From Pirellulaceae bacterium (GTDB taxonomy: Bacteria; Planctomycetota; Planctomycetia; Pirellulales; Pirellulaceae): a DNA stretch of 43,498 bases. This document shows, one piece after another, positions 10,876 through 23,568 of this stretch. Positions within the stretch are counted from its first letter, which is position 1. Each line of letters opens with the position of its first letter. Position numbers and translations under genes: made by a program. The stretch spans positions 1-43,498 of the forward strand of contig JBGTKH010000387.1 of assembly GCA_041744735.1 (NCBI GenBank). The letters are read 5' to 3'. The notes below the pieces were generated by a model that was not told where the DNA came from, searched no databases, and saw only the letters and a program-made list of their open reading frames with translations.

Positions 10876-13376
10876 TGTGGGACAAAATCATGTCAGAGCA
10901 AGCTACCAAAGTAGCCGAAGTCGTGCGACTTCGGTCGCCGGGCAACGTCGGCAATTTCCGAACTCTCACGAGTTCGGCTACGAAGATTCCCTACGGAACG
11001 CTGTGTTTCAAATATCTAGAACATTTTCGTGCCAGCTTGATCATCTTGGCCACTTGCTTGGCAATCAGCGGTTGCGATTCGGGGCCGGCGCCGATGCCGA
11101 CGGTGGATTCTCCGCTGATCGTTTCACAATCCGCGACCGCGCCTAGGGCCGAGCCTGCCCTCAGCGGCCACGAGCGCATGAAGGCGGTCCTGCGGGACAT
11201 TGCCGACGCCACGCCCGAGCAACATCCATTCCTAGGAATGAAGCGGGCTGTGGATCTGAGCAATCACGTTCACGAGGTCGAGGTGTTTTACGGCACGCAG
11301 ATTCCGGCCGACTATCGCTCGTGGCACATGTACTACACGTCCGGCAAAGCGGAAGTGCGGCTGGGAAATCTCGAAGCGGGCATCGAGCGATTAAAGATGG
11401 CTCTCTCGCTGGCTTCGCAGTTTGACTTCAATGAAGATCCGATCGCGCTGTCGAACCCAGCTTCGCCCGCGGAAGGCGACTTGAATCAACATTACCGCAA
11501 CCAAACGCGATTCTATTTGGCCGTTGCCCAATTGCGTTTGGCCGAGACGCAGAACTGTTGTGCTCAGAACAACGCCGAGAGTTGTATCGTGCCGATTCGC
11601 GGCCGCGGGCTGCACACGCGTAAGGAAGGATCGCGGGAAGCGATGCGGTACTTCCTCGAAATCCTCCGCGACGCGCCGCAAGACGCCGACACACACACGA
11701 CCGTCGAAGTGATCGAAGCGTCTCGTTGGCTGCTAAACGTGGCGTGCATGACGCTGGGCGAATGGCCCGACGGCGTGCCGGAGGAATATCGCGTCTCGCC
11801 CGATTTCTTCGCGTCGCCCGAAGGATTTCCGCGATTCAACAACGTCATGCCCGATTTGCAGCTTGATACGTTCAACCTCTGCGGCGGCGCGATTGTGGAC
11901 GATTTCGACGGCGACGGGTATTTGGACATCGTCACTTCCACGTGGGACACGCAGGGCTCGATGAAGTACTTTCACAACAACGCCGATGGTTCGTTCGAGG
12001 ACCGTACCAAGCAATCGCAACTTGGCGACTTCTTCGGCGGCTTGAACATGGTACAGGCCGATTACGACAACGACGGTGACACCGATATCTTTGTGTTGCG
12101 AGGCGCCTGGCTGCAAGACTACGGGCGGCATCCGAATTCGCTGCTGCAAAACGACGGCCGCGGCGTTTTCACGGACATGACGTTCGAGGCCGGTTTGGGC
12201 GAGGTGCATTATCCGACAAAGACCGCCGCTTGGGCCGACTATGACAACGACGGTGACCTCGACCTGTTCGTGGGAAATGAATCCACCACGAAACTTCGCG
12301 CACCGAATCAACTGTTTCGTAACGAAGGCAACGGCAAGTTCACGGATGTGGCCGAGCAGGCCGGGTTGGGCGAACCGCTGTTTTCGATGGGCACGGTGTG
12401 GGGCGACTTTGACAACGATCGTTTCCCCGATTTATATGTGGCGACCGGGTTCACTAACCCGCTGTTCGCGCTGGAAGGTGGCGGGCCGAACCGCTTGTAC
12501 CGCAACAACGGCAAGGGCCAGTTTACGGACGTCGCGGAGGAGTTGAAGGTGACCAAACCTCTGGCCGCGTTTCCCACGTGGTTTTGGGATTTCAACAACG
12601 ACGGGGCGCTGGACATTTACGTGGGATGTTCGTCGGGGCCCGTCGGTGTACTCGTGTCCAAACATCGTTTCGGGTTGAATCATCTCTATCAAGGCGACGG
12701 CGCGGGCCGATTCACCGATGTGACCGAGTCGGTCGAGCTGACCTATCCCGCTCAGCCGATGGGCGCGAACTACGGCGATTTGAATGGCGACGGCTTCCCC
12801 GATTTCTATCTCGGCACGGGCAACGTCGAGTATTCCGAGCTGCAGCCGAACGTGATGTTTTTGAACGACGGGGGAAAGCGATTTGTCAACGTGACGTACG
12901 CTGGCGGCTTCGGCCATTTGCAGAAAGGGCACGGCGTGTCGTTCGCCGATTTGGATAATGACGGTGATCAAGACGTGTATGTACAATTGGGCGGCGCGTG
13001 GCCGGGCGACAAGTACTATGACGCCCTGTTCGAGAACCCCGGTTTCGGCAACCATTGGATCACAATCAAGCTGGAAGGCCGCCAAAGCAACCGCTCGGCC
13101 ATCGGCGCCCGCATCCGCGCCGATATTCAAGAGAACGGCGCCACGCGCAGCGTCTACAAATGGGTCAACAGCGGCGGCAGCTTCGGCGGCAACCCGCTAC
13201 GCCAAACCCTCGGCCTAGGCCAAGCCGAGCGAATACAGCGCCTGGAAATCTACTGGCCAACAAGCGATCTGACGCAAACGTTTGAAGACGTGGCAGTCGA
13301 CCAGTTCATTCACGTCGTTGAAGGTGAAGAACGCATTTCGACCATTGACCTGAAAACGTTCAAGCTCGGAAAGTAG
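10872..13376 (+). CDS. CRTAC1-family FG-GAP/VCBS repeat lipoprotein with ASPIC/UnbV C-terminal domain (second copy)
   Basis: Lipobox-like LATCLAISGC. Repeats DDFDGDGYLDIV, ADYDNDGDTDIFV, ADYDNDGDLDLFV, GDFDNDRFPDLYV, WDFNNDGALDIYV, GDLNGDGFPDFYL, ADLDNDGDQDVYV. UnbV-like tail (AIGARIRADIQ...VNSGGSFGGNP). The ATG at 10872 overlaps the TPR stop (ATGA). The ORF is open from 10830. Confidence 0.85.
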   Translation: MMWDKIMSEQATKVAEVVRLRSPGNVGNFRTLTSSATKIPYGTLCFKYLEHFRASLIILATCLAISGCDSGPAPMPTVDSPLIVSQSATAPRAEPALSGHERMKAVLRDIADATPEQHPFLGMKRAVDLSNHVHEVEVFYGTQIPADYRSWHMYYTSGKAEVRLGNLEAGIERLKMALSLASQFDFNEDPIALSNPASPAEGDLNQHYRNQTRFYLAVAQLRLAETQNCCAQNNAESCIVPIRGRGLHTRKEGSREAMRYFLEILRDAPQDADTHTTVEVIEASRWLLNVACMTLGEWPDGVPEEYRVSPDFFASPEGFPRFNNVMPDLQLDTFNLCGGAIVDDFDGDGYLDIVTSTWDTQGSMKYFHNNADGSFEDRTKQSQLGDFFGGLNMVQADYDNDGDTDIFVLRGAWLQDYGRHPNSLLQNDGRGVFTDMTFEAGLGEVHYPTKTAAWADYDNDGDLDLFVGNESTTKLRAPNQLFRNEGNGKFTDVAEQAGLGEPLFSMGTVWGDFDNDRFPDLYVATGFTNPLFALEGGGPNRLYRNNGKGQFTDVAEELKVTKPLAAFPTWFWDFNNDGALDIYVGCSSGPVGVLVSKHRFGLNHLYQGDGAGRFTDVTESVELTYPAQPMGANYGDLNGDGFPDFYLGTGNVEYSELQPNVMFLNDGGKRFVNVTYAGGFGHLQKGHGVSFADLDNDGDQDVYVQLGGAWPGDKYYDALFENPGFGNHWITIKLEGRQSNRSAIGARIRADIQENGATRSVYKWVNSGGSFGGNPLRQTLGLGQAERIQRLEIYWPTSDLTQTFEDVAVDQFIHVVEGEERISTIDLKTFKLGK

Positions 13377-13462
13377 CGACCGCGCTTCTTCTTCTCGTCC
13401 CATCCGTCACATGATAAATTGATAGCGGCTAAGGGACGCACGTCTTTTGCAGGAGCAATACC

Positions 13463-13663
13463 ATGAGCGAATCATCGGTTGAAGAACGGCTGGACTCATT
13501 GGAGCGTGAAGTTACTCGCCTGAAACTTCGGGCGAAAGGGCTGCAGCCGATGGACAAGTGGATCAGTGCGATCACTGGAACCGCCCAGAACGACCCGGTT
13601 TACGAAGAAATTTGCCGGCTGGGAAAAGAGATGCGTGATGCCGAACAACCACCAGAGGAATAG
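13463..13663 (+). CDS. putative type II antitoxin (partner of the downstream PIN toxin)
   Basis: 66-aa coiled-coil-like ORF that ends 2 nt before the VapC-like start. Assigned by position and size only. Confidence 0.55.
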   Translation: MSESSVEERLDSLEREVTRLKLRAKGLQPMDKWISAITGTAQNDPVYEEICRLGKEMRDAEQPPEE

Positions 13664-13665
13664 GG

Positions 13666-14088
13666 ATGTATCTGTTCGACACCGATTACCTTAGCCTCCT
13701 CAAGCGTCAAGCCGGCGTCGAATACCAGCGGCTATCTCAGCGTCTTGCTGGTCTACCGGAAGACGACTTCTTCGTCAGCATTATCTCGTTTCACGAACAA
13801 GTGCGTGGCTGGCAGAGCTACATCGCCAAGGCGAGAGATGAACGTGGGGCGATGCGTGGTTACGACGAACTTGAGAAACTGCTAAACGACTATGCCCAGG
13901 CTCAAGTGCTTCCCTACGACGAAGCCGCCACAGACCTGTTCGACGATCTGCGTAAGCAGAAGATCCGTGTCGGGACGATGGATCTCAGAATCGCGGCCAT
14001 TGCGATTTCCAACAACTTGACCCTGCTGACGCGAAATACCGTCGATTTCAAACGCGTGCCGGGCTTGACGTATGAGGATTGGACCTAA
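13666..14088 (+). CDS. vapC: PIN-domain ribonuclease toxin, VapC family
   Basis: MYLFDTDYLS (N-terminal acidic Asp), SFHEQ (Glu), GTMDLRIAAIAISNNLTLLTRNTVDF (third and fourth acidic positions). 140 aa, the typical size. Confidence 0.8.
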   Translation: MYLFDTDYLSLLKRQAGVEYQRLSQRLAGLPEDDFFVSIISFHEQVRGWQSYIAKARDERGAMRGYDELEKLLNDYAQAQVLPYDEAATDLFDDLRKQKIRVGTMDLRIAAIAISNNLTLLTRNTVDFKRVPGLTYEDWT

Positions 14089-14311
14089 TTGGCAACGCCG
14101 AACGCGAATTGGCTTCGGCGATAAGAATGAGAAGGATCCGGGTCAATGACTTTCACCGATTGGTTCTTCGGGCAGTCCCTCGTCGGTTCGGCGGTGCGGG
14201 CAGAGCATCAGCCAACGTCGGTTCGAGACAACTCAGAACTGGGCCAATCTTCCGAAAATCTTGAAAACTTGATAACCTCTTTACAAAACCATCGAGATTG
14301 TCGGGGACGCC

Positions 14312-15505
14312 ATGCCGAAACAATTCAGCCAAAATCAACGAACGTTCGCCTCGCTTTTTTGTGGCTGCGGTGGATTTGATTTGGGGTTCCACGATGCTGG
14401 CTTTCGAGATGTAGGTGCATTCGACAACGATCTTGCGGCGATTGAGGTCTACAACGAAAACCAGCGCGGTCGGGCATCCTTGTACGATCTTTCTTCCGGC
14501 ACTTTGTCGTCGTCAACGAACCCCGATGTCGTATTGGCCGGGCCGCCGTGCCAAGGGTTCTCAACGTTAGGGAAGCGCAAGTTTGCTGATCCACGTAATG
14601 TGCTATTCGTAGCGGCGGCCAAGATAGCGGTTAGTCTCGGTCCACGTGTGATCGCAATTGAGAACGTCACTGGAGTCTTGTCAGGTAGCTTGGCGTCTCA
14701 CTTTGCCACCGCCCGCGAAACGCTGAAAGACGCCGGATATGAGACGCGTGTATGTAACGTGAGCGCGAAAGACTTTGGATTGCCACAAATTCGGCGAAGA
14801 GTCATCCTTTTAGCTGCCAGGGAATCACTTGACTCGGTGGAACTTCCGATTGCCAGTAATCCTCGCTCGCTGGGCGATGTTTTGTCAAAGTGCTGTGGCA
14901 CGAATCACGAACCAATTCAGTTGAAAAATAACTCAGACGAAATGCGTATCGCGCGGAGCATCGGGCAAAACCAGAAGCTTTGCAATGTTCGCGGCGGCGA
15001 GCGTGCAGTACCAACATGGGAAATCCCTGAAGTCTTCGGACAAGTTTCGAAGCGCGAAGTACAACTGCTTGAACTCATCCGTCGGCTTCGCCGTCAAATC
15101 CGTCGGCGTCCCAATGGTGATGCGGACCCTGTCTCTGTAAGAGATATTCGTGAACGGGTTCAATGGAGCCCGTGCGCTGCACTGGCCAAGTTGGAACGCA
15201 AGGGGTATCTGCGACGCATCGAAGGGCGATACGATTTTACCCACGCATTCAACGGCAAGTATCGCCGCCTCTCACTGGCGCACGATTCACCGGCGGTCGA
15301 TACACGATTTGGCCAGCCGCGATATTTTATTCATCCGGAGGAACATCGTGGCTTGTCTGTGCGTGAAGCGGCGCGCATCCAAGGTTTTCCCGATTCGTTC
15401 CGTTTCAGTGGCACGCTTCAAGAACAATACCGCCTCGTTGGAAACGCCGTACCACCACCAATCGGGTATTGGCTCGCGAAGCAGATCAAGGAAAAGCTGT
15501 TATGA
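14312..15505 (+). CDS. dcm: DNA (cytosine-5)-methyltransferase
   Basis: All diagnostic C5-MTase motifs are present in order: I FASLFCGCGGFDLGF, IV GPPCQGFS, VI ENV, VIII QIRRRV, IX RGLSVREAARIQGFPD, X GNAVPPP. A variable target-recognition region of about 150 aa lies between VIII and IX. Confidence 0.93.
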   Translation: MPKQFSQNQRTFASLFCGCGGFDLGFHDAGFRDVGAFDNDLAAIEVYNENQRGRASLYDLSSGTLSSSTNPDVVLAGPPCQGFSTLGKRKFADPRNVLFVAAAKIAVSLGPRVIAIENVTGVLSGSLASHFATARETLKDAGYETRVCNVSAKDFGLPQIRRRVILLAARESLDSVELPIASNPRSLGDVLSKCCGTNHEPIQLKNNSDEMRIARSIGQNQKLCNVRGGERAVPTWEIPEVFGQVSKREVQLLELIRRLRRQIRRRPNGDADPVSVRDIRERVQWSPCAALAKLERKGYLRRIEGRYDFTHAFNGKYRRLSLAHDSPAVDTRFGQPRYFIHPEEHRGLSVREAARIQGFPDSFRFSGTLQEQYRLVGNAVPPPIGYWLAKQIKEKLL

Positions 15506-16461
15506 ACGTCGATGAGTTGGTAGCTGCGTGGGCGCTCGGTACAGGGCCGTCGACAAAGCTGCGCGCCAACGAGCGACTGATTCGATTCCTCGGCGAATGG
15601 CTCTTCCCCGATTATCAGCCGTTCCCGGAGAAGGCGGAATTTTGGGAACGTCTGTTTGTCTGGCTCGACCACATTGGGCCGTGCGATTCGCGAAGCGAAG
15701 ACCAACGCGCTATGTTCGACTTCGTGCCGCACCTCTTATTTGCTGCGGAGCGGGACCTGACGTCAATGTATCGGGCGGCGTATGACGGCCCGATTCGCCG
15801 TTGGCTTATTGACCAAGGCAACTTAATGCTTGACAGCTCCGACTTGGATTCAGACCTACAACACCTGCGCAAAGATACCTGGTTCGGTAGTCTCGCCGGA
15901 ATGGATATCGCCGGATTTTGCCGCGTCAACCGTATCTTTCCGCAAAGCTACCGGCCGGAATTTCGGTTTATTGCCAAGTTCTGTGATCCTGCGGAGATCA
16001 AAGCTTGGTTGCAGTCAGAAGGCTACAAACGAATCATCGTTGTCGAGGACATGGTGGGCACGGGCGAACAGTTCGAGGAAGCGCTGCCGGCACTTCGCGG
16101 TGTTGGTGGCACGGACGCAATCAATGTCCTGTTCGTTCCATTGTTCATTCCACCACAGGGATTCGAATTCATTTGCGAGCAACTCGAGAAACTGGATCAT
16201 CAGCACATCACCTGCCACCCAATGATTGTTTTGCCTGAATCGGTGTTGATTCGCCGGGACGCCCACGAAGATGAATCCGACGACATTGCGAGATTCCGTG
16301 ATGTAATTCTGCGTCACGGGCACGGAGACTTTGGGTTGGGCGACAACTACGGGACGCTTATTTTGAGCTTCTTGAATTGTCCGGACAATGTACCGCCAAT
16401 TGTACACTCACCAGCCGAGACGGCGTTGTTTCCGCGTGCGTCGAGAGAGGGAACACTGTGA
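15502..16461 (+). CDS. hypothetical protein with phosphoribosyltransferase (PRTase)-like PRPP-loop motif
   Basis: The ATG at 15502 overlaps the MTase TGA (ATGA). KRIIVVEDMVGTGEQF matches 11 of 13 positions of the classical PRPP-binding signature (four hydrophobics, then [DE]-D-x-x-x-T-G). No other family features recognised. Confidence 0.6.
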   Translation: MNVDELVAAWALGTGPSTKLRANERLIRFLGEWLFPDYQPFPEKAEFWERLFVWLDHIGPCDSRSEDQRAMFDFVPHLLFAAERDLTSMYRAAYDGPIRRWLIDQGNLMLDSSDLDSDLQHLRKDTWFGSLAGMDIAGFCRVNRIFPQSYRPEFRFIAKFCDPAEIKAWLQSEGYKRIIVVEDMVGTGEQFEEALPALRGVGGTDAINVLFVPLFIPPQGFEFICEQLEKLDHQHITCHPMIVLPESVLIRRDAHEDESDDIARFRDVILRHGHGDFGLGDNYGTLILSFLNCPDNVPPIVHSPAETALFPRASREGTL

Positions 16462-18458
16462 AGACACGCCGGAACCCATTCACGACCCTTTACGTTACCG
16501 AGCGACTCGATCAGGCGGATTTTCCCGCATTGTTCAGCCCCGTGCTTGTACCGCACATCACGCCCCTTTTTGAAGCGGGCAATGTCGTGGTGAAGGGAAC
16601 GCAGGGTACGGGCAAGTCGATGTTGCTGGCCCTGCTGCGGACCGAAGTACGCATGGCGTATGCAGAATCCATGACGGACGAGTACCCAATCGACGATAAG
16701 GATATTTGTCAATTCCTCTGTGCGGGCATCAACCTTTCGACAGACCAAGCGCTGCGGTCGGCGGGCCGTTGGAGCGGCAGCGGCAGGGACCGCGATGACG
16801 AATTACGATTGTGTTTCGTTGATTACGTCAACTCATGGATTCTTCGGGATCTTCTTCAATCCATCGACGTATTGCTCTCACGGCCCGGAGTCCTGTGGGC
16901 TCCATTGGAACTGGGCGGAAACGGCGATGCATTCGTGCAGTCGCTCCGACTGATGGCCAAGCATCCGAGCATCCCCATTCGAACGAGCGACCGGATTACA
17001 CCGCGAACCGCGGTGGCCGAACTGACCGAGCGCATCGACGGCTATCTTCGATTCTTCAATGGCAGACCCAAGCAGTTGCCTGCGGAAGTCACCGAGAGTC
17101 AAACGCAATCGCTAGGACAACCGATAGCGGACGCCGTGGAAATGTTGCAGCAGGCAGGATGTCTTGCACGGTCGACCAGGGTTCTGATTATGCTTGACCA
17201 GTTCGAGCAGTTGCTGGAACTGGAGGCCTGCTTACCGAATCGGCCATACGGGTTGCTCCGCGACACGATCGAGCAGGCGTTGCATCGACGGAAGGCGACG
17301 TTGAATTTTCGGATTGGCACGCGGCCCTACGCCTGGAATGAACCTGTCGGCGAAGCCATTCGGGACTACTTAGCGCTCAATCTCGACGACATGCTGGCCC
17401 GAAAAGAACACGGAAACCGCAAATTGTTTCCCTCCCTGGCGTCCGACGTGTTTGCGCGGAGATTACGGGTTTACGGCTATCGAGAACTGGCAGATGCCAC
17501 CGACCCGGTAAGTTCGGCGTTCGGTCCGTATCCTCGACCGCGAAAACGAGTGAAGTCTATCGGAGCCAACGTGGACTGGTCGCAAAGGATGTCCATCCCC
17601 CAACGAGTCGACGCGGAGATTGCGGGGCGGCTGCGAGCACTCGCGAAGAGTGAACCGCTCGAAGCCAAACTCGGTGTTGCATGGGCGCTGCAAAAGGCCG
17701 AGGAGTGTGACCTCAAGGAATTTGCCGTGGAAGAGATCGACGACCTGCCGTGGAACAAAGGCAAAGGCTGGTGGAAGAAAGAGAGGTTGCATCTCGCTAT
17801 TCTGCAACTGGCCTCCGACAACCGCCAGAAGGTCGTGATGTTCGGAAAAAAGGATCTTCTCGATCTGTCCGGACAGAATGTCCTAACATTCACGAGTATT
17901 TGCCAACACATCTGGGAATGTTGGATTCGTCATCTTGCCATCGAAAAAATATCCGAGCCGCGGTTTCCGATCGATTCTAAGCTGCAAACCGAAGGAATTC
18001 TGTGGGCCAGTGACACATGGCATCAAAAGATTTCCCAGGAATCTTGGGTCGGTGACACGTTACTTGCTTTTGTCGACGAACTAGGCAATAGACTTCGTCG
18101 AATGCTCATAGACGATGAAGCCATGTCCTATCCAGGCGGAAATGGGATTTCATTGGCCAACCGCGATCTGAGGGCGTTTCCCCAGGTCCGACAGATACTG
18201 AGCGAGGCATCCGGACGTGGCTTCCTTCTACAGCGAAGGCACACGCCCAAGAACCGCGCTCGGGGCGAGTCCACGAAATGGTATTTGCATCCTGTTCTTG
18301 CGCCTTACTATGAAGTCACGCTGAATCACACCAAAGAGCCCCGTTACGTTTCTGGGGCAGAGGTGCAAGCCTGGCTCGAGCGAGCGGGGGTCGCGCTGTC
18401 CGCCCCCGCCAAGGAACAACAGTTGACGCTGCCCGGCGTTGAGGACGCGACATCATGA
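16458..18458 (+). CDS. P-loop NTPase (AAA/ORC-Cdc6-like or STAND-like) with a large uncharacterised C-terminal region
   Basis: The GTG at 16458 overlaps the preceding TGA (GTGA). Walker A is VVVKGTQGTGKSMLL, near the N-terminus and preceded by NPFTTLYV. The Walker B candidate is RVLIMLDQFEQL, about 230 aa downstream. About 666 aa. No nuclease motif seen by eye. Confidence 0.7.
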   Translation: MKTRRNPFTTLYVTERLDQADFPALFSPVLVPHITPLFEAGNVVVKGTQGTGKSMLLALLRTEVRMAYAESMTDEYPIDDKDICQFLCAGINLSTDQALRSAGRWSGSGRDRDDELRLCFVDYVNSWILRDLLQSIDVLLSRPGVLWAPLELGGNGDAFVQSLRLMAKHPSIPIRTSDRITPRTAVAELTERIDGYLRFFNGRPKQLPAEVTESQTQSLGQPIADAVEMLQQAGCLARSTRVLIMLDQFEQLLELEACLPNRPYGLLRDTIEQALHRRKATLNFRIGTRPYAWNEPVGEAIRDYLALNLDDMLARKEHGNRKLFPSLASDVFARRLRVYGYRELADATDPVSSAFGPYPRPRKRVKSIGANVDWSQRMSIPQRVDAEIAGRLRALAKSEPLEAKLGVAWALQKAEECDLKEFAVEEIDDLPWNKGKGWWKKERLHLAILQLASDNRQKVVMFGKKDLLDLSGQNVLTFTSICQHIWECWIRHLAIEKISEPRFPIDSKLQTEGILWASDTWHQKISQESWVGDTLLAFVDELGNRLRRMLIDDEAMSYPGGNGISLANRDLRAFPQVRQILSEASGRGFLLQRRHTPKNRARGESTKWYLHPVLAPYYEVTLNHTKEPRYVSGAEVQAWLERAGVALSAPAKEQQLTLPGVEDATS

Positions 18459-19468
18459 CGGCGCGCTATCGGCCTTCAGGGCCACTGCGATGGACAATCG
18501 AAAGATTACCGAATCAGGTCGAATGGGATTTGATCGGCTCGGTCGCCGCCGAACCGCGCGCAAACGAAGTTGCCAGAGAATTGGTTTCGCTCGGTAAACT
18601 ACGCTCGTCCCAGTTCTTGTGCGTTGAGGATGAACCGAGTGAGTTCCAACCTGCGGTACAGGTCGCCTGCGATCAAAACCGCCGTGAATTGACCGCGATA
18701 CTTGGAGACCCGCCGCAAACATTGAACATGGCCCTGTTTTCCGAGGTCGATGAACTTGATGAGATGTATGACCGGCTGAAAGTAATCATCGGCGAGAACG
18801 TCATACTCGACATTTCAGCCGTACCGAAGAGGTTTTTCTTCTATCTGGTTCGGCGGCTGAGGGACTCAATCCAGGTTAAGAACCTGCTGGTCACGTATGT
18901 ACTGCCTGACAGGTACGGCAAATCCCTCTACCAGAATCCGGGAGGGTGGATGCCGTTACCAGGTTTTGGAATGGAAACTTCAACAACGACCCGGCCGATG
19001 TTGGTTGTCGCGGTAGGCTATCATCACTTAAAACTGCTTGAACTGATCCAGGAACGAACTCCCAAACCCGTACGATTGTTAATGCCGTTTCCGTCTATCC
19101 CGCCTGGCTTCGCGCAGAATTGGGAATTCGTTCGATACGTTCGGGAGCAGGTCGAGTTCAATGCGCGCGATATTCGTCGGGTTGATCCGTTCAGCGTTTC
19201 GCTCGCCTTTGAACACCTGCAATCCCAATGTCTCGGTCATGACGGGGAACTGCTTCTTGCCCCCTTCGGCCCCAAACCGTTATCGTTGGCGATGGCGCTT
19301 TTCGCGCTGGCGCGCGAAGAAGCCGGATTGCCAGTTACGGTGGGTTATACGCAGCCGACGGCGTACAGTGACACGTACTCATTGGGAGTGCGGATCGACC
19401 AGGCCGGCAACGCCGTCATTCACACCTACTGCATCAAGCAAAGTGGCTTGTGCCTATATGAAAATTGA
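18455..19468 (+). CDS. hypothetical protein; two Rossmann-like halves each carrying a CARF-like motif
   Basis: The ATG at 18455 overlaps the preceding TGA (ATGA). Motif D119-I-S-A-V-P-K125 fits [DN]x[ST]xxx[RK]. A second, similar element is LLLAPFGPKPLSLAMALFAL (residues 266-285). No family recognised. Confidence 0.6.
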   Translation: MTARYRPSGPLRWTIERLPNQVEWDLIGSVAAEPRANEVARELVSLGKLRSSQFLCVEDEPSEFQPAVQVACDQNRRELTAILGDPPQTLNMALFSEVDELDEMYDRLKVIIGENVILDISAVPKRFFFYLVRRLRDSIQVKNLLVTYVLPDRYGKSLYQNPGGWMPLPGFGMETSTTTRPMLVVAVGYHHLKLLELIQERTPKPVRLLMPFPSIPPGFAQNWEFVRYVREQVEFNARDIRRVDPFSVSLAFEHLQSQCLGHDGELLLAPFGPKPLSLAMALFALAREEAGLPVTVGYTQPTAYSDTYSLGVRIDQAGNAVIHTYCIKQSGLCLYEN

Positions 19469-19480
19469 AGGCCGACAGTC

Positions 19481-20176
19481 GTGACGAAAGCCCTGAACAT
19501 AACGCAACCGACAAAGCAGCGAATTCACAAAGTTCACCGGCTGCTTGCCGCGGAATATCCCGACACCGTGCTGGGAAACAAGCGAAATCCGTTGGACGAG
19601 TACCTGTATATTTATCTCTCGTTGCGGACGCACGAGCGAGGATTCGACGCTGCATACAAGGGTTTCAAGCGTCGCTTTCCGACATGGCAATCAGCGTTCC
19701 GTGCCACGCGGAAGCAAATCGCGCGGGCCATTCGGCCGGCAGGCTTGGCGGACCAGAAGGCCGGAAGGATCAAACAGGCCTTGCGGATCATCAAGTCGGC
19801 GTTTGGCGAGGTGTCGTTACGTAGGCTAAAGCACTGTTCAGCGGACGATGCGGAAGCATTCCTCATGCGACTTCCCGGCATTGGCGTCAAAAGCGCACGT
19901 TGCATCATGATGTACGCACTTGGCTTTGACGTTCTCCCCGTCGATACGCACGTTGCCCGGATATCAACGCGATTGGGTTGGATTGACGTTGGCCAAACAG
20001 ATCTTCACGATGAGTTACAAGATTTGGTTCCGCCGAGTTTGCGTTTTGGTTTACACGTCCGCTTCGTCCAACACGGTCGTGCGATTTGCCGCGGTCAACA
20101 TCCGAAATGTGCCCGTTGTTGTTTGGCAGGCATCTGCCAGCGCGTCAGGGTGACGCAAACGGGCCAACCCAATTGA
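19481..20176 (+). CDS. endonuclease III-like HhH-GPD DNA glycosylase with a [4Fe-4S] cluster loop
   Basis: GTG start 12 nt after the preceding stop. Helix-hairpin-helix LPGIGVKSARCIMMYALG retains the Nth-type Lys. It is followed by PVDTHVARISTRLGW (catalytic Asp). C-terminal CRGQHPKCARCCLAGIC has the exact C-x6-C-x2-C-x5-C spacing. Confidence 0.88.
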   Translation: MTKALNITQPTKQRIHKVHRLLAAEYPDTVLGNKRNPLDEYLYIYLSLRTHERGFDAAYKGFKRRFPTWQSAFRATRKQIARAIRPAGLADQKAGRIKQALRIIKSAFGEVSLRRLKHCSADDAEAFLMRLPGIGVKSARCIMMYALGFDVLPVDTHVARISTRLGWIDVGQTDLHDELQDLVPPSLRFGLHVRFVQHGRAICRGQHPKCARCCLAGICQRVRVTQTGQPN

Positions 20177-20296
20177 CATAAATCAACCATGGCGATTCGC
20201 AAACGATTTCGGCTGCCGGCGCATTTCCTGGCGCGTGCCGACCGGCTGGTTCCGCTGCGCGAGGCGGTTCGCTCGGGGTTGGACAGTCCGGCCCTG

Positions 20297-20818
20297 TTAG
20301 GCAGCACCGTCGCCAGGGGACGCCCCAGTGAAATTCGAACTGGCCATCGTCACGAAAATCCTCGCAGTGCAGCAGGGCCAGTCGGAGATGGCCAACGGAT
20401 AGTCGCCCTGCCGCAGAATGGGCGTGACGACCTTATCGGCCTCGAACCAGGCGAACTGCCATTCCTGCTGCACGTAGGCCGAGCTGACCGCACTGGGCCC
20501 GACGACTAGCAGCAAGCGGTCGCGGGCGGCGACGGCCTCGCGAAGCTCCTGATGGAAGGTCAATCCCCGCGAGGGCATGTGTACGCGGTCGAACCAGACG
20601 TCGAAGCCCCGAGCGGTCAGCGCATCATACAACCGCCGCACAAACGGCTCGTCATCCCCGCGGGCATACGACAGAAAGAGAGCAGGCCGCGCCGGTGTTT
20701 TTGGGCTTGCCAGTTGTGCCGTGGGACCATCCTCAGCAACCTCGACCTGCCCGTGCTCCGGACAGATCCAGAACGAGCCCACTTGCGCCAGTTCAGTTTG
20801 ACATTTGGGACAACGCAT
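20297..20818 (-). CDS. zinc-ribbon / TIR domain protein
   Basis: N-terminal MRCPKCQTEL...WICPEHG (C-x2-C...C-x-x-H ribbon). Then a TIR-like core ALFLSYARGDDEPFVRRLYDALTARGFDVWFD ... LLLVVGPSAVSSAYVQQEWQFA, with a conserved Glu candidate. Confidence 0.75.
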   Translation of the reverse strand: MRCPKCQTELAQVGSFWICPEHGQVEVAEDGPTAQLASPKTPARPALFLSYARGDDEPFVRRLYDALTARGFDVWFDRVHMPSRGLTFHQELREAVAARDRLLLVVGPSAVSSAYVQQEWQFAWFEADKVVTPILRQGDYPLAISDWPCCTARIFVTMASSNFTGASPGDGAA

Positions 20819-21183
20819 GTGCGCGCCCTTTTGCTCGACCAGGTAAACAGAAAAAAACTCGGTTGGTCAACTGCGATTGTCCAACATATCACAGAGGATT
20901 TCCAGTTCCGTGACCGAGAAAGCAAGGTGATCCTTCACCACTCCTGCCGCTCAAGCATGTCGTACGGAACGTCTTCGCGCTTCGGCACCCAGCCGTATCG
21001 CTCGCCCTTGAGTGGTTCGGGACTGCCGATCCCATCAAAAAAAGCGCGACAGATGTCAGCGAGCAACTGATTGATGCGATTGAGCAACTTGTGGTCGTGC
21101 TGCTGGAGCCACAGCTAGACTTGATTGCGTCACGTTGGCTGCTGTTGTATTGTGTTGCCTCTGATGCGGCTGGACGATCAAAA

Positions 21184-21375
21184 TCACTCGTCGTTTCTGT
21201 CTCGCGCCTCAAGCCCGCTCTCTACCTCGTCCTCTGGTTCTACTGGAATGCCGTGGCGTTCATCGAGCCAGCGGCCGAGGTCGATTTGGCGGCAGCGCTC
21301 GCTGCAGAAAGGCATGGCGGGGGTTCGCTCGGAGTCGAACTTCGTCTGGCACGTGGGACAGCGAATCAAGGCCAT
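21184..21375 (-). CDS. yacG: DNA gyrase inhibitor YacG (zinc finger)
   Basis: MALIRCPTCQTKF...PFCSERCRQIDLGRWL is the YacG signature. 63 aa. Confidence 0.85.
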   Translation of the reverse strand: MALIRCPTCQTKFDSERTPAMPFCSERCRQIDLGRWLDERHGIPVEPEDEVESGLEARDRNDE

Positions 21376-21382
21376 GTGACGC

Positions 21383-21754
21383 CTACTTAGGTTTTGTCTT
21401 ATTCGCCGAGGCGCCTTTGGAATCGGTGGCTTTCGGTTCCGACGGCTTGGTTTCGGATTTGGTTTCGGACTTGGATTCCGATTTTGAATCTGATTTTGAT
21501 TCGGACGTGTTGCTGGAACTGCTTTCCGATGCCGCGGACTTATCTGCTTCCGCGCTCTTCTTATACGAATCGCTGCGATAGTCGGTCTGATAGAAGCCCG
21601 AGCCTTTGAACATCACGGCGGCACCGGTGCCGAACAGGCGGCGGAGTTTCGATCGCTTGCAGGCGGGGCATTTTTTCTTGGGCGTTGCGGTGATCGACTG
21701 GAACAGTTCGAACTCGTGCCCGCAGGCGTCGCATTCATAATCGTAGGTAGGCAT
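21383..21754 (-). CDS. FmdB-family zinc-ribbon protein (CxxC_CxxC_SSSS) with a low-complexity Ser/Lys/Glu/Thr tail
   Basis: MPTYDYECDACGHEFE...KKCPACK...RLF. The C-terminal tail SESKSDSKSESKSETKSETK is encoded by short tandem repeats at about 21440-21500. Confidence 0.85.
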   Translation of the reverse strand: MPTYDYECDACGHEFELFQSITATPKKKCPACKRSKLRRLFGTGAAVMFKGSGFYQTDYRSDSYKKSAEADKSAASESSSSNTSESKSDSKSESKSETKSETKPSEPKATDSKGASANKTKPK

Positions 21755-21766
21755 AGTGACAGGTCC

Positions 21767-22384
21767 TCAATCGGTGTGGTGGGGAGAATTGGATTCTTGG
21801 CTGGATTGTGCGAGCCCGGTGGAGACGAACACTTGCGCGGGCCGCACGACGCGGTCATGCAGTTGGTAGCCGGCCTGGGTCACGCGCGTCACAGTGCTGG
21901 GCGGATGTTCGTCGCTGGGCTCTTGGGCGATGGCTTGGTGAACGTGCGGGTCGAACGGCGCACCGTGCGCGTCGATCCGCTGGCAACCATGCTGCTCCAA
22001 CACGTTATGCAACTGCATGGCCACCATCTTTACTCCGTCCAGCAACCCGGCCGCATTTTCGCTTTGTTCGGCAGAGTCGATCGCCCGCTGCAGGTTGTCG
22101 ACTACGTTCAACAGGCCTCGCATCAGCGGTAGCGCCGCGTAACGCTTCTCGTCTTCCAACTCGCGACGGGATCGCTTGCGGTAATTTTCCAACTCCGCCT
22201 GTACTCGCAGCACACGGTCGTTGGCCGCCTTCACGTCCGCTTCTAACCGCTGTATCTCTTCGTGCAGATCGGGTTCGCTCGGCACGCCGGCTACGTCAGC
22301 CTGAGGCTGGCTGTGCGCAGGTGCGCTGGTCGGCTCATCCGCGGCGGTTTGGTTTTCCGGTTGAGGTATACTGTTATCGATCAT
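21767..22384 (-). CDS. grpE: nucleotide exchange factor GrpE
   Basis: Coiled-coil N-terminal part (RLEADVKAANDRVLRVQAELENYRKR) and a GrpE beta-domain (FDPHVHQAI...V..V.QAGYQLHDRVVRPAQV). Confidence 0.9.
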   Translation of the reverse strand: MIDNSIPQPENQTAADEPTSAPAHSQPQADVAGVPSEPDLHEEIQRLEADVKAANDRVLRVQAELENYRKRSRRELEDEKRYAALPLMRGLLNVVDNLQRAIDSAEQSENAAGLLDGVKMVAMQLHNVLEQHGCQRIDAHGAPFDPHVHQAIAQEPSDEHPPSTVTRVTQAGYQLHDRVVRPAQVFVSTGLAQSSQESNSPHHTD

Positions 22385-22389
22385 GGCGA

Positions 22390-23568
<1,179 letters not shown>

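Follow-up and report, generated by a model that had tools for sequence, protein, structure and literature searches.

Four genes in the window studied here (the whole 43,498-nucleotide stretch of Pirellulaceae DNA that was analyzed) make up a genuine, horizontally mobile bacterial module. They encode, in order, a Dcm-type methylase (G1), a phosphoribosyltransferase or PRTase (G2), an ORC/Cdc6-like ATPase (G3) and a tandem CARF-like protein (G4). Identical order and orientation of these genes were found in approximately 60 of 74 genomes from more than 10 phyla, with collinear G1-G2-G3-G4 arrangements in Planctomycetota, Verrucomicrobiota, Proteobacteria, Acidobacteriota, Nitrospirota, CPR, Armatimonadota and Bacillota, among others. 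Median intergenic gaps along the module are 0, 0 and -4 nt, and a mirror-tree comparison of pairwise divergences gave correlations of r = 0.89-0.92 within G2-G4 and of 0.73-0.79 between these and Dcm. This co-inheritance of G1-G4 bears out the earlier proposal of a single operon and functional unit, and the suggested check of the neighborhoods of genes 2-4 gave the same answer, since their homologs co-occur with each other and with a methylase across these phyla. The first-pass annotation had described a five-gene cassette; G1-G4 stand as a conserved core, but the fifth gene (G5) is specific to this locus and missing from all 74 related loci.

The module is rare, occurring in 74 of 185,579 species-representative genomes, and no copy was detected among 72,556 plasmids and 50,697 phage records. 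Its flanks are heterogeneous between loci, and there are degraded copies that are decayed or disrupted by IS elements; some have G3 and G4 broken by IS elements, with Dcm and the PRTase gene still intact. The module is regarded as mobile because of these flanks and degraded copies, together with its low GC3 (0.53-0.63 in the cassette, 0.71-0.74 in housekeeping neighbors). By GC content the cassette ranks among the lowest 3.4% of windows of equal size. The dip had previously been put at 47% versus 67%, which was an overestimate; the measured values are 55.0% for the cassette versus 58.4%, a real but small difference. A defense-island setting had also been noted, with VapBC on one side and a TIR gene on the other. 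There is indeed a PIN toxin gene upstream, and the downstream side carries a TIR gene in opposite orientation, but this context is local to the window and not a property of the family, as both genes are missing from all 74 related loci.

Genes of the cassette

The five predicted genes are all on the + strand and, as previously described, the first four are linked by three 4-nt stop/start overlaps. The ATG of G2 overlaps the G1 stop (ATGA at 15502), the GTG start of G3 overlaps the G2 stop (GTGA at 16458), the third overlap is ATGA at 18455, and G5 starts after a 12-nt gap. The start codons selected for G2 and G3 match the N-termini of their homologs.

G1 (14312..15505, + strand, 397 aa) matches the C5-cytosine DNA methyltransferase profiles PF00145 (2e-59) and TIGR00675 (2e-47). 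Motifs I, IV, VI, VIII and X are present as FxGxGG, PPCQ, ENV, QxRxR and GNAV, so that, judged by its sequence, G1 is a catalytically intact cytosine-C5 methylase, as had been claimed. The best solved relative of its N-terminal domain is M.HaeIII. The target-recognition region (TRD, residues 185-335) is conserved to the same degree as the catalytic core, with median identities of 47% and 43%, respectively.

G2 (15502..16461, + strand, 319 aa) is the predicted effector. Its earlier description as PRTase-like is supported by a match to PF24390, PRTase-CE (5e-16, 59.7 bits), above the Pfam cut-off of 27 bits. The PRPP loop IIVVEDMVGTGEQ (E182, D183, G186, G188, Q190) and a C-terminal G-x14/15-P-x-N-x-x-P...H...F.R motif are each at least 90% conserved in approximately 60 orthologs. 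All 15 of 15 G2 family members matched PADLOC PRTase_III-A effector models (best 4e-27), a label that we take, from the PADLOC naming convention, to denote effectors of type III-A retrons. The link to these retrons is independent of the label, because the G2 motifs resemble the retron III-A effector motifs VVILTDTIGSGNQ and Gx14PNNxP (PMC12746101). Activation of Retron-Eco11 depletes PRPP and causes abortive infection, and a PRPP-loop mutant of its effector loses defense (PMC12746101). ShosT, PsyrT and OpnC of Ophion are further defense PRTases (bioRxiv 10.1101/2025.09.30.679545). The letters "CE" abbreviate conflict effector, meaning a predicted immune effector that targets nucleotides; bioRxiv 10.64898/2026.01.15.699771 attributes the term to Nicastro et al. 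2023. G2 is a PRTase of this conflict effector clade with an intact PRPP-binding loop; the chemistry proposed for it below is extrapolated from one retron effector and ShosT.

G3 (16458..18458, + strand, 666 aa) belongs to the ORC/Cdc6-type AAA+ ATPases, carries a winged-helix domain at its C-terminus and is a predicted DNA-binding, NTP-dependent switch. It matches PF24389, ORC-CDC6-like, at 4e-26 nearly end to end (residues 12-622 on profile positions 6-563 of 571) and has the Walker A sequence GTQGTGKS, in agreement with its initial reading as a P-loop NTPase of about 666 aa. At least 90% conservation was found for Walker A (G47-x4-GKS54), D247-Q-x-E250 and R285/R289. The best Foldseek matches of the AF2 model (pLDDT 86.5) were Orc1/Cdc6 on origin DNA (2qby, 4e-4), Aeropyrum pernix ORC2 and BrxC of BREX (9zll, 9zdx), all at low TM values of 0.2-0.3.

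G4 (18455..19468, + strand, 337 aa) is a stand-alone tandem CARF-like protein with no fused effector, and is predicted to act as a nucleotide sensor or regulator. The tandem CARF-like assignment, made originally from the sequence alone, agrees with a full-length match to the PADLOC model PDLC01923, "CARF6--CARF_CARF_CARF" (4e-65), and with the two Rossmann-like beta-alpha lobes of the AF2 model (pLDDT 91.4, pTM 0.92). No Pfam family was found for G4, apart from faint Csa3_N matches in 2 of 29 members, and its Foldseek matches to tandem USP, Cam1/Csm6 CARF, Can1 and Cap5 SAVED were weak (TM 0.2-0.3). Strand 4 of each lobe is followed by a conserved loop, D119-I-S-x3-K125 in one and G272-P-K274 in the other. 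At E<=1e-30 the family comprises 302 clusters, and each of the 150 best members is a free-standing protein 253-380 aa long; the closest relative is 78% identical. A methylase-linked unit with no recognizable restriction nuclease had been proposed, and searches of G2-G4 with Pfam, PADLOC, NCBIfam and fold comparison agree with this, as neither a nuclease nor a helicase domain was detected. The operon likewise has no cyclase or synthetase able to make a ligand for G4.

G5 (19481..20176, + strand, 231 aa) is an accessory HhH-GPD [4Fe-4S] DNA glycosylase resembling EndoIII-1 (DR2438). The prediction of an EndoIII-like Fe-S glycosylase is confirmed by a PF00730 match (4e-10) and by the HhH lysine in LPGIGVK137, the VDTH aspartate and a Cx6Cx2Cx5C cluster; NCBIfam MonDNAglycDR2438 matches at 6e-41, below its cut-off. 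The best PDB match is Deinococcus radiodurans EndoIII-1 (4unf, 8a5c; 5e-35), with Mig.MthI (1kea) at 4e-9. Besides its absence from the related loci, no G5 was found 3' of G4 on the contigs with the closest G4 relative. Vsr is present in about 7 of the 74 loci, and in about 6 it occupies the slot downstream of G4. Since G5 is located in this same slot, it is probably a local add-on for repair of 5mC deamination.

Methylase linkage and replacement

Dcm orthologs lie immediately 5' to G2 in 61 of the 66 loci with upstream sequence, and a methylase of some type adjoins the module in 65 of these 66. One locus, L054, retains G2-G4 with no adjoining methylase. Four loci have, in place of Dcm, a methylase of different fold (PF01555) with TSPPY as motif IV; judged by its SPPY motif, the N4-cytosine signature, this enzyme is probably of the N4-cytosine type. 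G3 in these four loci retains 67 of 76 conserved positions, including the wing residues H595, K598, K607 and Y609, and G4 has 28 of 33 conserved positions unchanged, including D119, K125, G272-P-K274, Q300, Y304 and Y308. Three of the five G4 positions that differ in this clade (F129, S277, A279) are within the two predicted ligand loops. Retention of G3 despite the methylase swap would fit a reader that is blocked by either major-groove methyl on cytosine.

Proposed mechanism and alternatives

Literature searches found no experimental study of this module. A role in defense, as first suggested, is the most reasonable reading in view of the conflict effector clade of the PRTase, the patchy distribution suggestive of horizontal transfer, the atypical GC3 and the methylase swap. 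Our favored explanation, to which we assign a probability of roughly 0.4, is a self-contained, nuclease-free conflict module, directed against phages or plasmids, in which methylation gates abortive infection through an effector that depletes nucleotides or PRPP. The methylase would mark host DNA at a cytosine motif, and the G3 ATPase would read DNA and stay off on methylated self DNA. On phage or plasmid DNA with unmodified sites, G3 would switch and license the G2 PRTase, which may use up PRPP, break nucleotide glycosidic bonds, or both, so that the nucleotide supply collapses and replication arrests (abortive infection or dormancy). The phage would thus probably be starved of nucleotides, and its DNA not cut. 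G4 may gate or tune activation of G2 by binding a putative nucleotide ligand. In this locus only, G5 would stand in functionally for the Vsr encoded after G4 elsewhere, with putative repair of T:G or other 5mC-deamination lesions. G3 is assigned the role of DNA reader because of its likeness to DNA-bound Orc1/Cdc6 and to BrxC; methylation is proposed as the self mark because of the near-constant adjacent methylase and the replacement of Dcm with G3 kept. Candidate triggers are unmethylated DNA and an alarm nucleotide derived from the methylome.

It should be noted that some observations run against this explanation. It gives the CARF-like protein no necessary role, with no ligand synthetase in the operon; L054 keeps G2-G4 in the absence of a neighboring methylase; and the fold matches of G3 and G4 have low TM values. 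The conserved Dcm TRD, which has not diversified in specificity, is unusual for password-type R-M and fits the second of these triggers equally well.

That second trigger underlies a rather unlikely alternative with the same components and effector. Here the methylase would load host DNA with methyl-cytosine and not with a protective self mark; phage-induced degradation of the chromosome would free methylated deoxynucleotides or short oligonucleotides, and G4 would bind these and activate the PRTase via G3, leading to nucleotide depletion and abortive infection. There is a direct precedent in PUA-Calcineurin-CE-HAD, which is triggered by Dam-derived m6-dAMP from phage-degraded host DNA and depletes dNTPs; modules of a sensor plus a "CE" effector linked to methylases without restriction enzymes have also been noted (bioRxiv 10.64898/2026.01.15.699771). 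This alternative finds a role for all four proteins, above all for the otherwise orphan sensor G4, whose ligand must come from elsewhere because the operon lacks a cyclase. A non-diversifying TRD is expected if site identity is irrelevant, and the three G4 changes in the ligand loops of the SPPY clade are in its favor. However, a 5-methyl-specific pocket should change at more than five of 33 conserved G4 positions upon the swap, G4 lacks a modified-base reader fold of the PUA, SRA or EVE type, and the winged-helix DNA-binding part of G3 is left with no obvious role. Methylated mononucleotides are not among the known CARF ligands, which are cyclic oligoadenylates or RNA ends, and this also counts against it.

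Selfish addiction, comparable to that of type II R-M, is improbable. Loss of the cassette would dilute methylation, and a long-lived G3/G2 arm would kill or arrest the segregant by nucleotide depletion, with phage defense as a by-product. The nearly obligatory methylase, often overlapping the PRTase gene, would suit such a system, as would the mobile, patchy distribution, the atypical GC3 and the IS-broken copies with Dcm and PRTase intact, but the module is rare and is absent from the plasmid and phage records, where addiction modules thrive. Its mechanism would, moreover, be the same as that of the favored explanation and compatible with defense. We consider it very unlikely that the PRTase, ATPase and CARF-like protein, with Dcm and the glycosylase, jointly produce or process modified bases or nucleotides (e.g., in salvage or hypermodification) outside defense. 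Classical PRTases do form nucleotides from a base and PRPP (PMC5512222), and a repair enzyme, G5 or Vsr, is found beside some cassettes. Yet most loci have no repair gene, the flanks show no recurrent hypermodification enzyme (Tet/JBP, glycosyltransferase, kinase or other), G2 falls within a clade of defense effectors, and replacement of Dcm by a methylase of other fold and chemistry argues against a 5mC-based pathway. A chance juxtaposition, in which three unrelated genes happen to adjoin an ordinary orphan Dcm with a repair glycosylase, has only the local presence of the latter two genes in its favor and is refuted by the shared gene order, conserved tight spacing, co-evolution and heterogeneous flanks.

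Relation to known systems

The module shares with type III-A retrons (Retron-Eco11) a homologous PRTase in which both the PRPP loop and the G-x14-P.N..P motif are similar, but it has no reverse transcriptase, ncRNA (Rfam negative) or fused wHTH, and its regulatory genes encode a methylase, an ORC/Cdc6 ATPase and a CARF-like protein. Like BREX, it combines a methylase and an ORC/Cdc6-clade ATPase, structurally matched by BrxC, with no classical restriction nuclease. Unlike BREX, it lacks PglZ, BrxA, BrxB and BrxL, its G3 is half the size of BrxC, it has a PRTase effector, and its methylase, a C5 (or SPPY-type) enzyme, stands alone and is not the N6-adenine PglX. PUA-Calcineurin-CE-HAD is similar in placing a nucleotide-depleting "CE" effector under a nucleotide or modified-base sensor, in having related methylase-linked modules without REases, and in a trigger derived from DNA methylation, which for the present module is a proposal (bioRxiv 10.64898/2026.01.15.699771). 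It differs in its PUA sensor, phosphoesterase effector, lack of an ATPase and use of host Dam, where the present module has a CARF-like protein, a PRTase, an ATPase and its own methylase.

The two-lobed CARF-like pseudo-dimer of G4 is like Can1 or SAVED of the type III CRISPR and CBASS arms, with a loop of the [DN]x[ST]xxx[RK] type following strand 4. In contrast to those systems (Can1, Csm6, Cam1, Cap5), the operon contains no Cas10 or CD-NTase and neither is a recurrent neighbor, G4 is not fused to an effector domain, and the structural similarity is weak. As in Dcm-Vsr and M.MthTI-Mig.MthI pairs, a C5-methylase is accompanied by an enzyme fit for 5mC-deamination repair (Vsr after G4 in about 6 loci, HhH-GPD here), but G5 is much nearer to EndoIII-1 than to Mig.MthI and retains the HhH lysine characteristic of bifunctional EndoIII; T:G specificity is putative. 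In ShosTA (Shosta) the toxic arm is also a PRTase that perturbs nucleotide metabolism (bioRxiv 10.1101/2025.09.30.679545). That precedent, cited in the first-pass annotation, is apt, but the retron-type PRTase_III-A effector of PADLOC is a closer relative, and the present module has no PADLOC ShosT or ShosA match, DprA-like domain or antitoxin gene.

The closest correspondence is to the PRTase-CE systems, as G2 and G3 both exceed the curated cut-offs of PF24390 and PF24389 and both are present in every retrieved homolog. A 2023 study by Nicastro, Burroughs, Iyer and Aravind is said to be, very probably, the original computational description of the PRTase-CE family. The earlier view of an unrecognized combination of unknown proteins does not hold, since G2 and G3 have dedicated, consecutive Pfam families and G4 has a full-length PADLOC CARF6 model. 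The parts of the module are already catalogued in databases, and the present locus, which adds an EndoIII-1-like glycosylase, is a further instance of a computationally known kind.

Genes, composition and flanks of the cassette

Five ORFs lie on the plus strand between positions 14312 and 20176 of the window, where the first-pass annotation had placed them: a Dcm-type C5-cytosine methylase (G1), a PRTase-CE protein (G2), an ORC/Cdc6-like ATPase (G3), a tandem-CARF-like protein (G4) and an HhH-GPD glycosylase (G5). The stop/start overlaps ATGA at 15502, GTGA at 16458 and ATGA at 18455, as well as the 12-nt gap before G5, were present as described, and the short starts that had been picked for G2 and G3 match the N-termini of homologs. 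The GC contrast with the flanks had been overstated; the cassette has a GC content of 55.0% versus 58.4% for the remaining window, which places it among the lowest 3.4% of windows of its size. The difference is clearer in GC3, at 0.53-0.63 in the cassette versus 0.71-0.74 in housekeeping neighbours. No sigma-70 promoter or terminator signal above shuffled expectation was found at the cassette, and a search for island boundaries around it yielded no tRNAs, no Rfam matches and no convincing flanking direct repeats.

Upstream of the cassette, at 13463-14088 on the plus strand, is a VapBC-like pair consisting of a 66-aa ORF followed 3 nt later by a PIN-domain ORF; the 66-aa ORF has no significant family match. 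The pair has a GC content of 0.54, low like that of the cassette, and accompanies none of the 74 related cassettes described below. Downstream, at 20297-20818 on the minus strand, is a gene for a 173-aa zinc-ribbon-TIR protein, with an N-terminal CPKC...CPEH zinc ribbon and a TIR_2 domain (6e-19). Its product has weak ThsB and PDC-S66 matches in PADLOC and a C-terminus that seems short, and the adjacent DNA shows no evident gene for a partner effector. Farther out, one flank carries FG-GAP/ASPIC genes and the opposite flank GrpE-DnaJ-GroEL. The intergenic DNA separating the TIR gene from the grpE 3' end holds, at 21453-21493, three imperfect palindrome-like units of about 17 nt (TCGGAyTTGGwTTCsGA) with 12-nt spacing; G2 contains a fourth one, at 15838. 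Long ORFs (138-241 aa) antisense to grpE and dnaJ, such as that at 21716-22533 on the plus strand, have no family matches; they are most likely artefacts of high GC rather than genes.

Distribution and co-inheritance of a four-gene core

Related loci were gathered by searching 185,579 species-representative genomes with a G4 profile, and their neighbouring genes were identified by tblastn of the window proteins. The 74 loci found span Planctomycetota, Verrucomicrobiota, Alpha-, Beta- and Gammaproteobacteria, Acidobacteriota, Nitrospirota, the Candidate Phyla Radiation, Armatimonadota, Bacillota, Omnitrophota and Kiritimatiellia. The order G1-G2-G3-G4 on a single strand was seen by tblastn in essentially all loci with enough sequence, and Dcm in 61 of the 66 having upstream DNA; the same search detected neither G5 nor the PIN or TIR genes at any of the 74. 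The cassette proposed in the first-pass annotation is a coherent methylase-led unit worth testing, but the conserved unit has four genes rather than five. On the contigs of the closest G4 relative (78% identical), G4 is followed by an unrelated gene on the opposite strand.

The gene-neighbourhood comparison that had been recommended showed that homologs of G2-G4 co-occur with each other and with a methylase. Median intergenic gaps in the four-gene unit are 0, 0 and -4 nt, and the G2 and G3 genes adjoin or overlap in all 63 loci that have both. Across 57 complete loci, pairwise divergences correlate at r = 0.89-0.92 within G2-G4 and at 0.73-0.79 with Dcm. Collinearity, tight gaps and correlated divergences together rule out a chance adjacency of the core genes. 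The nearest neighbours of related cassettes are heterogeneous, comprising housekeeping genes and a few SoFic, EcoRII-C, HTH and transposase genes, and no tblastn match to G3 was obtained in 72,556 plasmids and 50,697 phages. In its behaviour the four-gene family therefore resembles a compact, mobile chromosomal module rather than a fixed piece of a larger island. ThyX was considered as a recurrent neighbour and dropped, its sides and distances being inconsistent among loci.

Loci L016, L027, L031, L035, L059 and L072 come from cultured strains that would be practical material for experiments: Ectopseudomonas composti CCUG 59231, Cognatilysobacter terrigena, Rhizobium sp. C1, Luteolibacter sp. 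AS25, Vreelandella nigrificans and Roseinatronobacter bogoriensis DSM 18756. Several loci depart from the intact arrangement. In Gimesia maris CA11 (L075; CP036353, 5804-12389) the same cassette is IS-inactivated: a DDE transposase divides the ORC/Cdc6-like gene into 466-aa and 216-aa parts, and a second IS follows a shortened ORF of 274 aa at the G4 position (normally about 337 aa), while Dcm and the PRTase are intact. A short 'paralog', P0113, was rejected as a distinct context, being an IS-split copy of the same cassette. At L048 (4668-9914) the Dcm, ATPase and CARF-like genes are fragmented and the PRTase is undetectable; this cassette appears decayed. In a Litorimonas MAG (L054; 7029-11035 and 12024-14315), G2-G3-G4 occur without an adjacent methylase, and a relaxase/DUF3363 gene about 1 kb downstream of G4 suggests that the cassette is carried by an integrative mobile element.

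Component proteins and the methylase replacement

G1 is a complete C5-cytosine methylase, with every catalytic motif present (PF00145, 2e-59; PADLOC MTase_II, 3e-69). In its target-recognition region (TRD), residues ~246-306 of the product of 14312-15505 form a helical, basic insert that faintly matches a LexA-type winged helix (E 0.043); the insert (lRRq.R.R..GDADP) is kept across phyla and might mediate contacts with other components besides DNA recognition. In four loci (L065, L068, L069 and L070), belonging to Bacillota, Uhrbacteria, Armatimonadota and Victivallales, the Dcm position is held by an amino-methyltransferase of different fold (PF01555, 3e-18). These enzymes are about 390-410 aa long, are encoded directly upstream of the G2 homolog, match the PADLOC MADS 'mad2' model, and have DPFxGKGT as motif I and, in all four, TSPPY as motif IV. 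SPPY is the mark of N4-cytosine enzymes, DPPY or NPPY that of N6-adenine enzymes. From this motif, cytosine probably stays the modified base across the methylase swap, with a different chemistry.

G2 belongs to PF24390 'PRTase-CE' (59.7 bits versus a 27-bit cut-off, E 5e-16), a family carried by 48/48 retrieved homologs of adequate length. Its PRPP loop, IIVVEDMVGTGEQ, is at least 90% conserved in the family, as are the loop residues E182, D183, G186, G188 and Q190, all present in the window protein, and a C-terminal G-x14/15-P-x-N-x-x-P...H...F.R motif. A profile search for distant contexts recovered the same family only. PRTase-CE, with Calcineurin-CE and HD-CE, was reportedly named as a nucleotide-degrading immune effector by Nicastro et al. 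2023. The term 'CE', attributed to those authors, is defined as 'conflict effector' (bioRxiv 10.64898/2026.01.15.699771), and 'conjugative element', from a polyvalent-protein paper (PMC5512222), was rejected on that ground. The PRTase effectors of type III-A retrons have the PRPP loop VVILTDTIGSGNQ and a hallmark Gx14PNNxP; activation of Retron-Eco11 depletes PRPP, leading to abortive infection, and defence is lost when the PRPP loop is mutated (PMC12746101). ShosT, PsyrT and Ophion OpnC are further PRTases with a role in defence (bioRxiv 10.1101/2025.09.30.679545). PADLOC 'PRTase_III-A' models were matched by 15/15 diverse members of the G2 family (best 4e-27). Since these matches are strong family-wide and the motifs fit the Retron-Eco11 description, the label was read as retron type III-A, and CRISPR type III-A was rejected.

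G3, an AAA+ ATPase of 666 aa, matches PF24389 'ORC-CDC6-like' with 92.2 bits versus a 27-bit cut-off, over profile positions 6-563 of 571. Its AF2 model (pLDDT 86.5) combines an AAA+ core with a long helical region and, at the C-terminus, a winged helix, and its best structural matches, all of low TM, are Orc1/Cdc6 on origin DNA, ORC2 and BREX BrxC. Walker A, D-Q-x-E and Arg residues are conserved, and no nuclease domain was found in the protein. Profiles of G2, G3 and G4 had no significant match among PDB sequences.

No Pfam family covers G4, apart from faint support by Csa3_N in 2 of 29 family members. It matches PADLOC PDLC01923 'CARF6--CARF_CARF_CARF' (4e-65, profile positions 2-296 of 299) and eight more CARF6 models. 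The AF2 model (pLDDT 91.4, pTM 0.92) has two beta-alpha lobes, for which Foldseek gave weak, low-TM matches to tandem-USP proteins, the CARF domains of Cam1/Csm6, Can1 and Cap5 SAVED. Conserved basic loops, D119-I-S-A-V-P-K125 after strand 115-119 and G272-P-K274 after strand 266-270 in lobe 2, are in this model directly after the fourth strand of each lobe, the position of the CARF signature of [DN]x[ST]xxx[RK] type. The family is rare, with 40 clusters at 90% identity and 302 at 50% identity (E<=1e-30) among 1.84 billion representatives; of the 302, the 150 best are without exception stand-alone proteins of 253-380 aa. No cognate nucleotide cyclase is present in the operon. A CARF census was reportedly made by Makarova et al. 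2020.

G5 is an HhH-GPD Fe-S glycosylase in which the HhH lysine, the catalytic Asp and the Cx6Cx2Cx5C cluster are all retained. Its nearest relative is D. radiodurans EndoIII-1/DR2438 (5e-35), whereas the T:G glycosylase Mig.MthI is a distant one (4e-9). The sole recurrent extra gene of related cassettes is Vsr, which six loci have directly after G4 and one has upstream, so that G5 occupies in the window the slot that Vsr has after G4 elsewhere. G5 is a candidate locally recruited repair accessory, whose substrate may be 5mC-deamination damage.

Known systems, proposed mechanism and significance

The absence of a recognisable restriction nuclease, claimed from the first reading, holds: Pfam, PADLOC, NCBIfam and fold searches of G2-G4 found no nuclease family, whether PD-(D/E)xK, HNH, PLD, GIY-YIG or other, and no nuclease recurs in the flanks of the 74 loci. 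The cassette thus shares its methyltransferase with type II R-M systems but lacks the cognate REase. It has no PglZ, PglX or Brx match in PADLOC or Pfam, its likeness to BREX being that of G3 to BrxC at the fold level only. With retron type III-A the PRTase alone is homologous; the cassette has no RT domain, and 12500-22000 contains no Rfam match. Neither G2 nor its family matches a PADLOC ShosT or ShosA model of Shosta (ShosTA), and no CD-NTase or Cas10, as in CBASS or type III CRISPR, occurs in the cassette or among recurrent neighbours of related loci. Dcm alone matches the DrmMII/DruM models of DISARM/Druantia, and the signature DrmA/B/C and DruE are absent; for MADS, G3 matches mad8 at E 0.013 only and the mad1-8 signature is likewise absent. 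Unlike Dcm-Vsr pairs, the window has the HhH-GPD protein G5 in place of Vsr.

The combination of genes, in contrast, is not as unfamiliar as had been supposed. G2 and G3 exceed the cut-offs of PF24390 and PF24389, the PRTase-CE/ORC-CDC6-like pair, with the PRPP loop intact, and G4 falls in the PADLOC CARF6 group by profile as well as by fold and loops. Since the two Pfam accessions are consecutive and PF24389 covers G3 nearly full-length, we infer that Nicastro et al. 2023 gave a computational description of the G2-G3 pairing and possibly of the entire operon. A full-text literature search, with Makarova 2020 and Nicastro 2023 outside its scope, found no published description or experimental test of the operon. 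The system is therefore of a kind known computationally, with no experimental study found, and the locus-specific glycosylase is the variant here.

The domain identities, intact catalytic motifs, co-inheritance and methylase swap observed can be accommodated by a module for defence or addiction: methylation would gate the PRTase effector, G3 would be a DNA-binding NTP switch and G4 a nucleotide-responsive regulator; the PRPP or nucleotide supply would then collapse. We assign a probability of roughly 0.4 to this whole model with R-M-like sensing of unmethylated cytosine sites as its trigger. Such a trigger is favoured because the enzyme that replaces Dcm still seems to act on cytosine, and because 67 of 76 conserved positions of G3, winged-helix wing residues included, and 28 of 33 of G4 persist across the swap.

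A related reading, which we regard as doubtful, is an epigenetic self/non-self system with a metabolic, non-nucleolytic 'restriction' arm: the ORC/Cdc6-like ATPase would read cytosine methylation and license a PRTase that destroys the PRPP/nucleotide pool, and the tandem-CARF protein would respond to a ligand that no known cyclase makes, which may be a methyl-cytosine nucleotide or a product of the PRTase. Either ligand, if confirmed, would be a new CARF ligand class. The main rival, an alarm derived from the methylome as in PUA-Cal-HAD (bioRxiv 10.64898/2026.01.15.699771), seems unlikely. It would provide G4 with a defined role and agrees with a Dcm TRD that does not diversify (47% identity versus 43% for the core), but a reader blocked by either major-groove cytosine methyl accounts for the swap more simply than a 5-methyl-dCMP-specific pocket. 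A residue comparison of Dcm-linked and SPPY-linked clades gave no clean separation of the two trigger models. In a more radical variant of the epigenetic self/non-self reading, the PRTase-fold enzyme would be a 'restriction glycosylase' acting on unmodified DNA cytosine, with EndoIII-like or AP-processing enzymes finishing cleavage.

The proposed methylation-gated PRTase module is directly testable, given a compact family, clear catalytic residues and cultured hosts of the Pseudomonas group, Rhizobium, Vreelandella and the Roseobacter group. For annotation, the conserved unit is four genes, the glycosylase and Vsr being optional repair add-ons, and G4-type proteins are at present labelled 'hypothetical'. 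If the proposed logic is true, it would join methylation self-marking to nucleotide-depletion immunity, paradigms usually treated apart, and would give a function to an orphan CARF family without a cyclase. The cassette would then also be a compact four-gene counterpart to BREX for learning how nuclease-free methylase-linked systems stop phages.
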